Assembly (NCBI RefSeq): GCF_056746865.1
Contig: NZ_CM163382.1
Strand: one strand, 5' to 3'
DNA: 64,000 nt
Shown here: piece after piece, positions 45,796 through 50,376 of the stretch
Numbering within the stretch: position 1 is the stretch's first letter
How the letters are laid out: each line of letters opens with the position of its first letter
Translations under genes and position numbers: made by a program
The notes under the pieces: generated by a model
Database searches by the model: none
What the model saw: the letters and a program-made list of their open reading frames with translations, nothing else
What the model was told of the DNA's origin: nothing

Positions 45796-46401
45796 ATGAC
45801 GCTCTACCAGATAAAACCGCTCTTTCAGTCGCTGTTAAGGCCGACGATGTTTTGGCTTCATAAGCTGCAAGTGTCTGCAAATCAGATCACACTTGCCGCT
45901 TTGGCACTTTCTCTTCTCACCGGTTTGTTGTTGGCGTTGGTGCCATATCCTGGCATGTTTCTGCTATTGCCCATCGTGCTTTTTGTCCGTATGGCACTCA
46001 ATGCGCTGGATGGCATGATGGCGCGTGAGTGCAATCAGCAAACACGTCTTGGGGCGATTTTGAATGAAACAGGCGATGTTATTTCCGATATTGCGCTTTA
46101 TTTACCGTTTTTATTTTTACCGGAAAGTAACGCATCACTCGTAATACTCATGTTATTTTGCACCATATTGACCGAGTTTTGCGGTTTACTCGCGCAGACG
46201 ATTAACGGTATTCGTAGTTATGTCGGTCCATTTGGCAAAAGCGATCGCGCGTTAATATTTGGTCTGTGGGGGCTGGCCATTGCCATTTATCCACAATGGA
46301 TGCAATGGAATAATTTTTTATGGAGCATTGCTTCAATTCTGCTTCTCTGGACTGCGATTAATCGTTGTCGGAGTGTGCTTTTTATGAGTGCTGAAAGATA
46401 A
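45796..46401 (+). CDS. ynbA: CDP-alcohol phosphatidyltransferase family membrane protein, 201 aa
   Basis: CDP-OH transferase-like motif (ALDGMMAR...GAILNETGDVISDIALY); first gene of a four-gene cluster. Confidence 0.8.
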   Translation: MTLYQIKPLFQSLLRPTMFWLHKLQVSANQITLAALALSLLTGLLLALVPYPGMFLLLPIVLFVRMALNALDGMMARECNQQTRLGAILNETGDVISDIALYLPFLFLPESNASLVILMLFCTILTEFCGLLAQTINGIRSYVGPFGKSDRALIFGLWGLAIAIYPQWMQWNNFLWSIASILLLWTAINRCRSVLFMSAER

Positions 46402-47297
46402 TGCTGGAAAAATCTCTGGCAACACTTTTCGCGTTGTTAATTTTAGCAACGCTGATAAACCGTTTTCTGGTATGGCGGTTACCGGAGAGAAAAGGGGGGG
46501 AGGTTACATTACGTATTCGTACCTGGTGGGGCATCGTCATTTGTTTTTCACTGGTGATTTCAGGTCCACGCTGGATGACGTTGACGTTTTTTGCGCTGAT
46601 AAGTTTTCTGGCATTGAAAGAATATTGTACGCTTATATCTGTACATTTTCCGCGTTGGTTATATTGGGGTATTCCTCTTAACTATTTGCTTATCGGTTTT
46701 AATTGTTTTGAGCTGTTTCTGTTATTTATACCTTTGGCTGGGTTTCTGATATTAGCCACCTGGCGAGTTTTTGTGGGTGACCCCTCCGGTTGTCTGCATA
46801 CCGTGAGCGCCATTTTTTGGGGCTGGATAATGACCGTTTTCGCCTTGAGTCATGCCGCCTGGTTGTTAATGTTGCCAACCATAAATATCCAGGGCGAGGC
46901 GTTACTGGTGTTATTTCTTTTGGCATTAACCGAGTCAAACGATATTGCACAGTATTTATGGGGGAAATCCTGCGGCAGAAGAAAAGTGGTCCCCAAAGTC
47001 AGCCCGGGAAAAACGCTGGAAGGTCTGGTGGGGGGCGTAATCACTACTATGATTGTGTCACTGATTATTGGACCGTTACTGACACCGCTAAATACATTAC
47101 AGGCATTATTAGCGGGTTTGTTAATTGGTATTAGTGGTTTTTGCGGCGATGTAGTGATGTCAGCCATCAAACGAGATGTTGGAGTTAAAGATAGTGGAAA
47201 ACTATTACCCGGACATGGCGGACTCCTTGACAGGATTGACTCATTAATTTTCACCGCTCCGGTATTTTTTTATTTTATTCGCTACTGCTGTTACTGA
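46401..47297 (+). CDS. ynbB: CDP-diglyceride synthetase (CdsA) paralogue, 298 aa
   Basis: CTP-transferase signature ...[31 protein letters not shown] at the C-terminus; TAATG overlap with ynbA. Confidence 0.82.
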   Translation: [298 protein letters not shown]

Positions 47298-47312
47298 AGG
47301 AAAATAGAGAAA

Positions 47313-49070
47313 ATGGAAAATTCACGCATCCCTGGGGAACATTTTTTTACCACCAGTGATAATACAGCGTTGTTTTATCGGCACTGGCCCGCTTTACAGC
47401 CCGGGGCGAAAAAGGTCATAGTCTTATTTCATCGCGGTCATGAACATTCCGGGCGTCTACAACATCTCGTTGATGAACTGGCGATGCCAGATACTGCTTT
47501 TTATGCCTGGGATGCCCGAGGGCATGGAAAAACGTCAGGGCCGCGTGGTTATAGCCCATCTCTTGCGCGTTCAGTGCAGGATGTCGATGAATTTGTCCGT
47601 TTTGCTGCCAGCGACAGCCAGGTTGGACTGGAAGAGGTGGTTGTGATCGCGCAAAGCGTCGGCGCAGTGATGGTTGCCACATGGGTTCATGATTATGCGC
47701 CTGCTATTCGCGGACTGGTGCTGGCATCTCCGGCCTTTAAGGTTAAATTGTATGTGCCGCTGGCACGTCCTGGACTGGCGTTATGGCATCGTCTGCGTGG
47801 TCTGTTTTTTATTAATTCCTATGTGAAAGGGCGTTATCTGACCCACGATCGGCAACGGGTGGCGAGTTTCAATAATGATCCGCTGATCACACGGGCGATT
47901 GCCGTCAATATCTTGCTCGATCTCTACAAAACGTCTGAACGTATTATTAGAGATGCGGCGGCGATTACGCTCCCCACGCAACTTCTGATATCAGGCGATG
48001 ACTATGTGGTGCATCGCCAACCGCAGATTGATTTTTATCAGCGTTTACGTAGCCCTCTCAAAGAGCTGCATCTGCTGCCAGGCTTTTATCACGACACGTT
48101 GGGTGAAGAGAACAGGGCGCAGGCATTTGAAAAAATGCAAAGCTTTATCAGCCGTTTATATGCTAACAAGTCGCAAAAATTTGATTATCAGCATGAAGAC
48201 CGCACAGGACCATCAGCGGATCGATGGCGGCTCCTTTCTGGTGGACCCGTGCCGTTATCGCCGGTTGATTTGGCGTATCGCTTTATGCGAAAGGCGATGA
48301 AACTGTTCGGGGCACACTCTGCGGGCCTGCATCTCGGAATGAGCACCGGCTTTGATTCAGGCAGTTCGCTGGATTATGTCTATCAAAATCAACCGCAAGG
48401 CAGTAACGTATTCGGGCGCTTTATCGACAAAATCTACCTGAACAGTGTTGGCTGGCGCGGTATTCGCCAGCGCAAAACCCATTTACAAATGCTGATTAAA
48501 CAAGCCGTTGCCGATCTCCACGCCAAAGGTTTAGCCGTCCGCGTGGTTGACATTGCCGCAGGGCATGGGCGCTATGTACTGGATGCGCTGGCAAACGAGC
48601 CCGCCATAAGCGATATTTTGTTACGTGATTACAGTGAGTTAAATGTTGCACAGGGGCAAGAGATGATTGCCCAACGGGGAATGTCTGGGCGGGTGCGTTA
48701 TGAACAGGGCGATGCGTTTAACCCGGAGGAACTCAGCGCGTTAACTCCGCGGCCTACGCTGGCGATTGTCTCTGGACTGTATGAGCTTTTTCCCGAAAAT
48801 GAGCAGGTAAAAAACTCCCTCGCAGGTCTTGCCAATGCCATCGAACCGGGTGGCATTCTCATCTACACCGGGCAGCCGTGGCACCCACAACTGGAGCTGA
48901 TTGCCGGGGTGTTAACCAGTCATAAAGATGGTAAACCGTGGGTGATGCGCGTGCGTTCGCAAGGGGAGATGGATTCGCTCGTGCATGATGCCGGATTTGA
49001 TAAATGCACACAACGGATTGATGAGTGGGGCATTTTTACGGTTTCGATGGCGGTGCGTCGTGATAACTGA
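47313..49070 (+). CDS. ynbC: Two-domain protein: N-terminal alpha/beta hydrolase + C-terminal SAM-methyltransferase-like domain, 585 aa
   Basis: N-terminal hydrolase-like segment (HRGHEHSGR..., AQSVGA) and C-terminal Rossmann-like segment ([14 protein letters not shown]). Confidence 0.8.
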
Positions 49071-49083
49071 ACGCCGGAACGTA

Positions 49084-50376
49084 TTGCTACAAGGAGCTGG
49101 CTGGTTATTGTTGCTGGCCCCGTTTTTCTTCTTCACCTATGGATTTCTTAATCAGTTCACCGCGGTTCAGGACCTTAAAAGCCATGATATCCCCAGTCAG
49201 GTATTCGGTTGGGAAACGGCGATCCCTTTTCTTCCCTGGACTATTTTTCCTTACTGGAGTCTGGATCTTTTATATGGATTTTCGCTGTTCGTTTGTAGCT
49301 CGACATTTGAGCAGCGCCGACTTGTCCACCGGCTTATTCTGGCAACGGTAATGGCCTGCTGCGGTTTTTTGCTCTATCCGCTGAAGTTTAGTTTTATCCG
49401 TCCTGAAGTGAGTGGGGTGACGGGATGGCTATTTTCGCAACTTGAACTGTTTGATCTGCCTTATAACCAGTCTCCTTCGCTGCATATTATTCTCTGCTGG
49501 CTACTTTGGCGTCACTTTCGTCAGCATCTGGCTGAGAGGTGGCGTAAAGTCTGTGGCGGATGGTTTTTACTCATCGCTATTTCTACTCTGACGACCTGGC
49601 AGCATCATTTTATTGATGTCATCACAGGGCTGGCGGTAGGTATGTTGATTGACTGGATGGTGCCCGTCGATCGTCGTTGGAATTATCAGAAACCTGATCA
49701 ACGTCGAATCAAAATAGCACTGCCATATGTCGTAGGCGCGGGCTCGTGCATTGTGTTGATGGAGCTAATGATAATGCTTCAGTTATGGTGGTCAGTCTGG
49801 TTATGTTGGCCAGTATTATCGCTACTCATTATTGGCCGTGGGTACGGTGGGCTTGGCGCGATAACAACAGGGAAAGATAGTCAGGGGAAACTCCCGCCCG
49901 CCGTTTACTGGCTGACATTGCCCTGGCGCATCGGGATGTGGCTGTCTATGCGTTGGTTTTGTCGTCGCCTGGAGCCGGTGAGCAAAATTACTGCTGGTGT
50001 TTATTTAGGGGCGTTTCCACGACATATTCCGGCACAGAATGCGGTTCTGGACGTCACCTTTGAATTCCCTCGGGGACGAGCGACAAAAGATCGACTCTAT
50101 TTCTGTGTACCGATGCTGGATCTGGTGGTTCCGGAAGAGGGGGAGCTCCGACAGGCCGTGGCGATGCTGGAAACATTACGCGAAGAGCAAGGCAGCGTTC
50201 TGGTCCATTGCGCGTTGGGATTATCGCGCAGTGCGCTGGTAGTGGCGGCATGGCTGTTATGTTACGGACATTGTAAAACCGTTGATGAAGCGATTAGTTA
50301 TATTCGAGCCAGACGCTCGCGGATTATGCTTAAGGAAGAGCACAAAGCGATGCTGAAATTATGGGCAAACAGGTAA
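49084..50376 (+). CDS. ynbD: Membrane protein with C-terminal dual-specificity/tyrosine phosphatase domain, approx 430 aa
   Basis: CX5R phosphatase motif [10 protein letters not shown]; the longest ORF starts at 48985 and overlaps ynbC, so a TTG start at 49084 is inferred; start uncertain. Confidence 0.7.

Follow-up and report, generated by a model that had tools for sequence, protein, structure and literature searches.

The DNA analysed here, referred to below as the window, is a stretch of 64,000 nucleotides from the NCBI RefSeq assembly GCF_056746865.1 (contig NZ_CM163382.1). Positions 45796-50376 of its (+) strand carry the Escherichia coli genes ynbA-ynbB-ynbC-ynbD, with 100% identity over 4581 bp to several RefSeq E. 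coli genomes. The ynb locus is present in 4622 of the 5426 complete E. coli genomes, and 4283 of these retain it with at least 80% coverage. A preliminary description, made from the letters of the window, had proposed four co-directional and packed genes at these positions, and both the open reading frames (ORFs) and the identity to the annotated RefSeq ynbABCD confirm this arrangement. ynbA (45796..46401, +) encodes a 201-aa membrane protein of the CDP-alcohol phosphotransferase fold, ynbB (46401..47297, +) a 298-aa CdsA paralogue of the phosphatidate cytidylyltransferase family, ynbC (47313..49070, +) a 585-aa soluble hydrolase-methyltransferase fusion and ynbD (49060..50376, +, from the GTG at 49060 chosen as start by PGAP) a polytopic membrane protein that combines a PAP2-superfamily domain with a dual-specificity phosphatase. 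The TAATG overlap noted between ynbA and ynbB is indeed found, the stop codon of the former and the start codon of the latter having one base in common, and ynbB and ynbC are separated by 15 nt containing an AGGAAA ribosome-binding site. Among the operons of E. coli K-12 whose function is still unknown, ynbABCD is built wholly from lipid-enzyme families. Its location and domain annotations are already found in RefSeq and EcoCyc, and the observation of the operon as such restates a known unknown; in line with the preliminary description, no paper in the searched open-access literature assigns a product to it.

The assignment of YnbA to the CDP-alcohol phosphatidyltransferase family is supported by its match to Pfam PF01066 (E 1.1e-9 over residues 27-172) and by its size, which is that of the six-helix class I; its nearest PDB entry is Mycobacterium tuberculosis PgsA1 (6h53, E 3e-8). 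The CDP-alcohol phosphotransferase (CDP-AP) signature D1xxD2GxxAR...GxxxD3xxxD4 comprises eight residues described as "absolutely conserved" (PMC4634129), of which D1-D3 hold metals and D4 is the catalytic base (PMC4634129, PMC6506517), D1 and D3 being metal ligands in MtPgsA1 (PMC6506517). The corresponding stretch of YnbA, N69-x2-D72-G-x2-A-R-x8-G-x3-N90-E-x2-D94-x3-D98 (in letters, N-A-L-D-G-M-M-A-R-x8-G-A-I-L-N-E-T-G-D-V-I-S-D), matches six of these eight residues and has Asn at D1 and D3. Both Asn, and an invariant Glu after them, are found in every one of ~80 YnbA orthologues. The segment A-N-Q-I-T of YnbA aligns with the D-x-x-T of PgsA1 and agrees with the cytosine-binding pattern P(D/N)xx(T/S), which marks the beginning of TM1, its A, N and T being conserved in the family. 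Since D2, D4, the G, the AR pair and the N-x-x-T motif are all retained, YnbA still likely uses a CDP-linked donor. An invariant basic loop in the orthologues, R140...G-K148-S-D-R151, would suit an anionic acceptor.

In sequence, YnbA is closest to the phosphatidylinositol-phosphate (PIP) and archaetidylinositol-phosphate synthases (PgsA1, RsPIPS, AIPS), which share with it the size, the six-helix class, D2, D4, G, AR, the N-x-x-T motif and a phosphatase encoded alongside. However, YnbA scored 76.1 bits against the archaetidylinositol-phosphate synthase model NF040950 (cut-off 180) and 52.9 bits against the PIP synthase model NF045883 (cut-off 170), carries the Asn residues at D1 and D3, and has Val, Ile or Leu, across its family, in place of the inositol-phosphate-binding Arg next to D4 (R94 in MtPgsA1). 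In addition, no linked inositol-phosphate synthase was found in the 80 loci described below, and this assignment was rejected. A role as PgsA, the phosphatidylglycerol-phosphate synthase, was rejected as well, the scores being 26.2 bits against a cut-off of 109 (TIGR00560) and 20.2 against 304 (NF008090). An early annotation of YnbA as a cholinephosphotransferase was dropped by EcoCyc (PMC3781023). YnbA thus belongs to a distinct clade, the sequence of which does not point to a particular acceptor.

YnbB had been proposed to be a CdsA-like CDP-diglyceride synthetase paralogue, and its match to PF01148 (E 2.8e-69) agrees with this. The complete C-terminal CdsA signature is readable in the protein; we take this signature to be the PROSITE pattern S-x-[LIVMF]-K-R-x4-K-D-x-[GSA]-x2-[LIF]-[PGS]-x-H-G-G-[LIVMF]-x-D-R-[LIVMFT]-D. 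Against the CdsA equivalog model, YnbB aligned only in its C-terminal half and reached 111.7 bits, compared with a cut-off of 385. YnbB synthesizes CDP-diacylglycerol (CDP-DAG) in vitro (PMC6362211, PMC7018664) and does not complement cdsA (PMC6362211); together with the score, the lack of complementation led us to discard YnbB as a housekeeping CdsA. Its overproduction raises the level of the glycolipid MPIase (membrane protein integrase) ~3-fold and, under CdsA depletion, restores MPIase but not phospholipids (PMC6362211, PMC7018664). The eukaryotic Cds1 likewise supports MPIase synthesis (PMC7018664), and deletion of ynbB has no phenotype and leaves the MPIase level unchanged (PMC6362211). 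The preliminary description held that only ynbB has a functional link, namely to MPIase. This stands insofar as YnbB is the sole product with a biochemical link (PMC6362211, PMC7018664); it falls short in that further data have been published on the ynbA promoter, YnbD, the cold induction of ynbB and ynbC.

YnbC matches PF12146 (Hydrolase_4, E 7e-68) at residues 32-266 (47406-48110) and PF12147 (Methyltransf_20, E 2.6e-151) at residues 275-582 (48135-49058), as anticipated for an alpha/beta-hydrolase fused to a methyltransferase. The family profile finds the monoacylglycerol lipases of M. tuberculosis (Rv0183) and human (MGLL) with E values of 1e-38 to 1e-33, and the triad typical of such hydrolases, S115 (in the AQSVG nucleophile elbow), D230 and H260, is invariant or nearly so. 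The single weak hydrophobic segment of the protein contains this elbow. In the second domain, motif I for S-adenosylmethionine (SAM), D413-x-A-x-G417, is conserved together with D439 and D467, and the model (predicted local distance difference test, pLDDT, 95) shows the alternating beta-alpha elements of a Rossmann fold, as in class I SAM-dependent methyltransferases. All Foldseek matches of this model were SAM methyltransferases, the top one being an uncharacterised Bordetella protein (3ocj), followed by generic small-molecule and natural-product O- and C-methyltransferases; among solved sequences, farnesyl-diphosphate C-methyltransferases come nearest (E about 1e-7 to 1e-6). YnbC is thus like the monoacylglycerol lipases in its N-terminal domain and like the small-molecule class I SAM methyltransferases in its C-terminal one. 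By contrast with both groups, the two domains are always fused in the YnbC family (about 400 clusters at 50% identity with E < 1e-30), and this obligatory PF12146+PF12147 combination has no characterised member. A literature search on PF12147/Methyltransf_20, YnbC, YnbD and the domain combination retrieved no paper assigning a function. It should be noted that transposon insertion into ynbC leads to polyphosphate accumulation in one strain background, an effect that the Keio background does not show (PMC2435150).

YnbD had been presented as a membrane protein with a CX5R phosphatase motif. The phosphatase was correctly recognised, with a PF00782 match and the motif at residues 382-391, whereas an N-terminal PAP2 domain had been overlooked. 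The phosphatase domain spans residues 314-437 (49999-50370; DSPc, E 8e-26) and has the C384-x5-R390 P-loop and the general-acid D354 of a dual-specificity Cys-phosphatase (DUSP). The PAP2/PAP2_3 domain, which RefSeq annotates, lies at residues ~82-206 (49303-49677) with a weak match (E about 1e-4) and contains the triad H142/H182/D186; two more transmembrane (TM) helices are found between it and the phosphatase, and NCBIfam PRK12361, a model that may combine such a phosphatase with a lipid-kinase domain and was given no weight here, matches residues 217-435. Invariant in 31 YnbD orthologues are R114-P115, N136-Q-x-P-S-L-H142, S175...H182-H183-x-x-D186, D354 and C384-x-L-G-x-x-R390-S. Compared with the motifs of hydrolytic PAP2 lipid phosphatases such as PgpB, LpxT, YbjG and LPP (C1 KX6RP, C2 PSGH, C3 SRX5HX3D), the C2 and C3 motifs of YnbD read PSLH142 and S175-V-x5-H182-x3-D186, both invariant, and C1 retains only R114-P115, the C1 Lys and the C3 Arg of the hydrolytic enzymes not being conserved.

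The AlphaFold2 model of YnbD (pLDDT 92.5) has a PAP2-like six-helix core with the His-His-Asp triad, and the best membrane-protein structural matches of this domain were SMSr, of the sphingomyelin synthase (SMS) family, and AUR1, the inositol-phosphorylceramide synthase. In the model, the membrane domain is therefore closest structurally to the sphingomyelin-synthase/AUR1 head-group transferases and not to the PgpB-type phosphatases. The likeness to a transferase is one of fold and motifs; the sequence identity to SMS, SMSr and AUR1 is only 10-13%, and a profile of the N-terminal domain compared with PDB sequences aligned only the C3 motif of LPP1, and this without significance (E 0.04). None of these PAP2_3-type enzymes is known to be joined, as YnbD is, to a cytoplasmic Cys-phosphatase, and the acceptor must differ from that of SMS or AUR1 because E. 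coli makes no ceramide. K and R residues are concentrated in alternate loops of the model helices. Under the positive-inside rule, this distribution predicts a cytoplasmic location for the phosphatase domain, the N-terminus and the loops that follow TM2, TM4 and TM6, and a periplasmic one for the three PAP2 motifs. Regarding the phosphatase domain, mitochondrial PTPMT1 ranks 5th-8th among the structural matches, with scores equal to those of protein DUSPs and a sequence match of E 0.003 only. Plasmid-borne ynbD rescues neither undecaprenyl pyrophosphate (C55-PP) phosphatase nor pgpABC conditional mutants, and cells remain viable without any of the four PAP2 genes (PMC7413402).

To place these proteins in their wider context, one genome per species was searched with an alignment of 10 sequences, which yielded 80 loci with 10-kb flanks; Ynb homologues were located in each locus, all ORFs were clustered, and hidden Markov models were built for two extra conserved genes. 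In these loci the usual unit consists of six genes, the homologues of ynbA-D being accompanied by a gene for a ~205-215-aa PlsC/LPLAT-type acyltransferase (AT), with the motifs NHxSHxD and FPEGTR and a TIGR00530 match of E 6.5e-20, and by a gene for a small membrane protein (SP) of ~130-150 aa with a conserved R-x3-D / R-x2-G pattern, for which no Pfam or NCBIfam family was found. The order A-C-D-SP-AT-B is present in 50 loci (Pseudomonas, Variovorax, Cupriavidus, Rhodocyclales and others) and A-B-AT-C-D-SP in 11 (Citrobacter, Hafnia, Pantoea, Budvicia, Chitiniphilus and others). Seven complete loci read A-C-D-SP, with neither B nor AT (Proteus, Providencia, Morganella, Xenorhabdus and one Enterobacter), two read A-C-D-AT-B, and one has B and AT inverted; loci outside these architectures are cut by contig ends or degraded. 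The module ranges over Gamma- and Betaproteobacteria, with loci from Enterobacterales, Neisseriaceae, Burkholderiales, Rhodocyclales and Pseudomonas, and is also present in one Bradyrhizobium genome. YnbA and YnbC are naturally fused in three proteins (P0123, P0150, P0242), and YnbD and SP form one ORF in three loci (L017, L023, L029). These comparisons suggest a functional core of A, C and D, usually with SP, in which B and AT would supply phosphatidic acid (PA) and CDP-DAG and could be replaced by housekeeping enzymes. No further gene family is conserved around the cluster, and none that would make an unusual head-group alcohol; the acceptor must therefore be a common metabolite. The idea of a "self-contained" pathway, put forward in the preliminary description, does not hold: most other bacteria add the PlsC-type AT and SP, E. 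coli lacks both, and no locus encodes the synthesis of a special head-group alcohol. An anti-phage system was also considered and dropped, as PADLOC models matched none of the six proteins.

The reaction order CDP-DAG synthase, CDP-alcohol transferase and phosphatase mirrors that of CdsA-PgsA-PgpABC. The same logic applies to the CdsA-PgsA-PgpA/B/C branch and its mitochondrial variant with PTPMT1, a phosphatidylglycerol-phosphate phosphatase of dual-specificity fold that is among the best structural matches of YnbD: YnbB has the full CdsA signature, and the C-terminal domain of YnbD has the PTPMT1/DUSP fold with the Cys, the Arg and the general-acid Asp. The ynb genes could accordingly be redundant paralogues of the housekeeping enzymes that make ordinary phosphatidylglycerol. 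This is very improbable, and largely refuted by the published complementation tests, in which YnbB fails for cdsA and YnbD for pgpABC. YnbA, with Asn in place of D1 and D3, falls far below the PgsA model (26 bits against 109), and the components that the module adds to this branch, namely the lipase-methyltransferase, the SMS-like domain, the acyltransferase and the small membrane protein, set it apart; ordinary phosphatidylglycerol synthesis would have no use for the first two of these or for the small protein.

Another explanation is that the operon, via YnbB and possibly YnbA, is a back-up route to MPIase, leading from CDP-DAG to N-acetylglucosaminyl-pyrophosphoryl-diacylglycerol (GlcNAc-PP-DAG), with the other genes assisting, especially in the cold. 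PAP2 enzymes typically use lipid pyrophosphates, which would fit such a route, and the altered metal site of YnbA could suit a phosphate instead of an alcohol nucleophile. The ~3-fold rise of MPIase on YnbB overproduction and its restoration, without that of phospholipids, on CdsA depletion (PMC6362211, PMC7018664) speak for it, as does the induction of ynbB in the cold, below 25 C, according to Kamemoto 2023 in the form in which PMC11413397 cites it. On the other hand, the MPIase level is the same in a ynbB knock-out (PMC6362211), and eukaryotic Cds1 acts likewise (PMC7018664), so that the effect is a general property of the CdsA family. Moreover, the seven complete A-C-D-SP loci lack ynbB, which is then not part of the module core, the module is common outside Enterobacterales, in Pseudomonas and Burkholderiales, and no glycosyltransferase is conserved beside it. 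We consider a back-up role in MPIase synthesis unlikely.

Distant homologues of YnbC occur in varied settings. A homologue in locus L082 (614-9725) ends a gene set with a ketosynthase (KS), a FabG-like ketoreductase (KR), a FabD-like acyltransferase and FabA/ApeI- and ApeP-like dehydratases, and one in L084 (4649-10779) ends a set with a small ORF of the size of an acyl carrier protein (ACP), a KS, a MaoC dehydratase and a KR; both are 33-35% identical to YnbC. In L090 a distant homologue adjoins a PEMT-family methyltransferase, L092 carries a B-AT-C trio without A or D, and L089, from an unrelated metagenomic lineage, has a four-gene B-C / A-D arrangement without AT. The first two sets hint that a YnbC-type fusion can serve acyl-chain pathways. 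In view of these settings, YnbC may act on an acyl chain, on a lysolipid hydroxyl or on a head group. The module might even be catabolic. In such a remodelling scheme YnbD would act like a phospholipase C and release diacylglycerol (DAG); YnbC would deacylate DAG, monoacylglycerol or a lysolipid and methylate the fatty acid or lysolipid; and AT, YnbB and YnbA would rebuild a phospholipid, resulting in turnover of acyl chains or head groups or in a fatty-acid methyl ester signal. The kinship of the YnbC hydrolase with monoacylglycerol lipases, the constant fusion of hydrolase and methyltransferase, which suggests successive action on one molecule, the KS/KR/dehydratase/ACP and PEMT-family neighbours and the B-AT-C trio are all compatible with this scheme, and SMS-family enzymes do liberate DAG. 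It leaves unexplained, however, both the cytoplasmic Cys-phosphatase and a CDP-alcohol transferase whose active site is specific to the family. YnbC is linked with the transferase step by its fusions to YnbA, and the conserved genes of the cluster include none for a DAG kinase or for fatty-acid activation. Remodelling is thus an improbable function of the module.

Exceptions to the six-gene unit are E. coli, with A-B-C-D, and Phytobacter, which has A-B-C at the same azoR-hrpA site. No E. coli chromosome carries the acyltransferase gene, which occurs in this species on three plasmids only. These plasmids (e.g. NZ_CP027341.1, L087 5463-9565) carry a second, Citrobacter-like A-B-AT-C cluster in which ynbD is cut off by IS66. 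The E. coli operon thus appears to be a reduced form of the six-gene module. All four of its genes are under purifying selection, with ratios of non-synonymous to synonymous substitution (dN/dS) of 0.23, 0.19, 0.15 and 0.19 from ynbA to ynbD, measured between two E. coli alleles ~4% apart in which all ORFs are intact. Compared with strain ATCC 8739 (L088 301-906), ynbA has a synonymous divergence (dS) of 0.23 and 20 of 201 residues differ, versus a dS of about 0.093 for ynbB, ynbC and ynbD; since ynbA is far more divergent than the other three genes, a recombination breakpoint near the ynbA/ynbB junction is suggested.

These data bear on the proposal that the operon in E. coli is a silenced, horizontally acquired remnant whose product was lost with AT and SP and which persists because it is rarely expressed. 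AT and SP are cleanly gone, leaving gaps of 15 nt (ynbB-ynbC) and 53 nt (ynbD-azoR), with AT confined to the three plasmids, and in Phytobacter the decay has gone on to A-B-C. About 20% of the complete E. coli genomes lack the locus or have only part of it, and insertion sequences interrupt ynbB in some strains; ynbA and ynbB have a low G+C content, and knock-outs have no phenotype. Yet alleles 4% apart have all four ORFs unbroken and each catalytic residue in place, dN/dS is 0.15-0.23 and the full set is kept in >4200 genomes. The AT-free four-gene version in the unrelated metagenomic lineage (L089) and the A-C-D-SP versions show that the supply genes are dispensable, and the promoter has a specific activator (PMC3950696). 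A mere remnant is in our opinion a doubtful explanation of the operon. As side observations, ynbB is split by an IS4-like element (ISVsa5) or by IS1A in some E. coli (1919D62, CP61_Sichuan), and some genomes retain only fragments of the operon, e.g. the last 290 bp of ynbD.

Weighing these explanations, we hold with moderate confidence that ynbABCD is a real, co-transcribed and normally silent operon for a CDP-DAG-fed glycerophospholipid-tailoring pathway, trimmed from an A-C-D-SP-AT-B module. In its logic the module would resemble the CdsA-PgsA-Pgp and PIPS-PIP-phosphatase branches with an SMS/AUR1-type transferase attached. The modified phospholipid or glycolipid proposed in the preliminary description is plausible at the level of the pathway, and our confidence in the individual steps is much less than in the general picture. 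At the cytoplasmic face, PA would come from housekeeping PlsC in E. coli and, elsewhere, from the cluster's own PlsC-type AT, and YnbB would turn it into CDP-DAG, the step demonstrated in vitro in the literature. YnbA may then move the phosphatidyl group to a common, probably anionic acceptor by means of a re-wired N-D-N-D, and not D-D-D-D, metal site. The cytoplasmic phosphatase of YnbD and YnbC could tailor the lipid, in one order or another, by dephosphorylation, loss of one acyl ester and SAM-dependent methylation. From its fold and motifs, the periplasm-facing SMS/AUR1-like domain of YnbD, with its His-His-Asp triad, might take a phospho-head group off its diacylglycerol carrier and pass it to water or to an acceptor in the envelope, thereby freeing DAG, and in other bacteria SP would work alongside YnbD. 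The product would be a minor, conditional lipid or lipid-borne head-group donor and not a bulk phospholipid. A back-up of bulk lipid synthesis is not envisaged because YnbB cannot replace CdsA (PMC6362211) and YnbD can replace neither PgpABC nor the C55-PP phosphatases (PMC7413402). Expression would normally, and in laboratory culture, be off, to be switched on by BglJ-RcsB and perhaps by cold.

Several points weigh against this pathway. A lipid product has yet to be observed, and the knock-outs are without a clear phenotype (PMC6362211, PMC7413402; Keio ynbC deletion, PMC2435150). Two of the three metal-binding Asp of YnbA are Asn, which may make an ordinary phosphatidyltransferase role doubtful. 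The P-loop of YnbD, CALGLSRS, resembles protein DUSPs as much as PTPMT1. For the methyltransferase of YnbC, the Foldseek and sequence searches gave no clue to a substrate, and its distant homologues adjoin fatty-acid/polyketide-synthase-like genes, not head-group genes, the settings in L082 and L084 pointing to an acyl chain rather than a head group. Finally, E. coli lacks two otherwise conserved components, and its version may do less than the full module.

A bolder reading, to which we attach rather little probability, is that the module makes a lipid class undescribed in Proteobacteria, through a rebuilt di-metal CDP-AP clade and a periplasmic SMS/AUR1-type transferase coupled to a cytoplasmic Cys-phosphatase. 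YnbA, with Asn at D1 and D3 and the adjacent Glu, may here use an unusual nucleophile, of which a phosphate monoester is an example; compounds linked through diacylglycerol pyrophosphate, like the MPIase anchor, would result. A methyl mark would come from the lipase-methyltransferase.

E. coli phospholipid metabolism is generally held to be fully mapped. If a conditional lipid or a lipid-borne donor of head groups is what the module makes, this map would gain a new branch, and there would be an explanation for a CdsA paralogue that is at present considered only in relation to MPIase. The first bacterial SMS/AUR1-like transferase would be at hand, and a CDP-alcohol transferase clade that defies the "absolutely conserved" signature would be defined. 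The six-gene context with the E. coli-specific losses, the family-wide Asn/Asn of YnbA and the SMS/AUR1-like fold of YnbD appear to be new with respect to the searched literature. The comparative picture of a six-gene ancestral module, with an A+C+D core and dispensable supply genes, is better starting material for experiments than E. coli alone.

The start of ynbD had been noted as ambiguous, with a possible overlap with ynbC, and the PGAP and K-12 annotations do disagree. The PGAP start, GTG 49060, gives 438 aa and an 11-nt overlap with ynbC, whereas the K-12 start, a TTG equivalent to 49084, gives 430 aa and no overlap; the longest ORF begins at ATG 48985, and ATG 49021 is another alternative. 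We favour GTG 49060 because conservation among orthologues begins ~14 residues after it and because it aligns with the ATG of the Citrobacter orthologue, which overlaps the stop codon of its ynbC (ATGA).

The ydbD-ynbA intergenic region (45628..45795, +), which holds the ynbA promoter and 5' leader and an AAGGA Shine-Dalgarno sequence (45785-45789) before the ATG at 45796, shows about 96% conservation among three E. coli alleles. BglJ-RcsB acts as an activator at the ynbA promoter, the start site of which has been mapped, and has its binding site centred 65-68 nt upstream (PMC3950696); in a published transcriptome study, ynbA, ynbC and ynbD change together as part of the BglJ/RcsB regulon. The sequence TATTCTGA at 45703-45710 matches the published BglJ-RcsB core wwTTCykA, a core available as text only, and ATTCCTGA at 45670-45677 is a near match; both are kept in the three alleles. 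The sole promoter-like match of the consensus scan in this region (45755-45783) is no better than chance and its distance to TATTCTGA disagrees with the published 65-68 nt, and the BglJ-RcsB box was not placed. Within the operon, the promoter and terminator consensus scans gave counts equal to chance and no usable site. In a scan that is at chance level overall, a sigma-70-like match, TTGGCA-16-AATATT, lies inside ynbA (46232-46259, +), ~140 nt before the ynbB start, and could be relevant to the reported independent cold induction of ynbB.

Downstream of ynbD, a perfect 11-bp inverted repeat with an 8-nt loop and no U-tract (50386..50415) lies in the 53-nt gap to the convergent azoR. The RNA fold of 50370-50432 has -26.8 kcal/mol (z = -4.9 versus shuffles), and the hairpin is probably the transcript end of the operon. 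Lacking a T-run, the hairpin escaped the terminator scan, and an Rfam scan of 45300-50700 gave nothing credible.

azoR is followed by hrpA. Upstream, ydbD (43315-45627, +; 770 aa, a DUF2773-domain bactofilin in RefSeq) ends 168 bp before ynbA and was not seen beside the ynb module in other genera. The G+C content is 40-45% in ydbD, ynbA and ynbB (43200-47400) versus ~50-56% in ynbC, ynbD and hrpA, and the low values fit a foreign origin and silencing by H-NS-type proteins. Lastly, ynbB and ynbC are in one reading frame (46401-49070), with only the TGA stop and 12 nt between them. One E. coli record (P0002) holds an 889-aa YnbB-YnbC protein with PF01148 and the YnbC domains, the length of which is exactly that expected if the ynbB stop is read as a sense codon.

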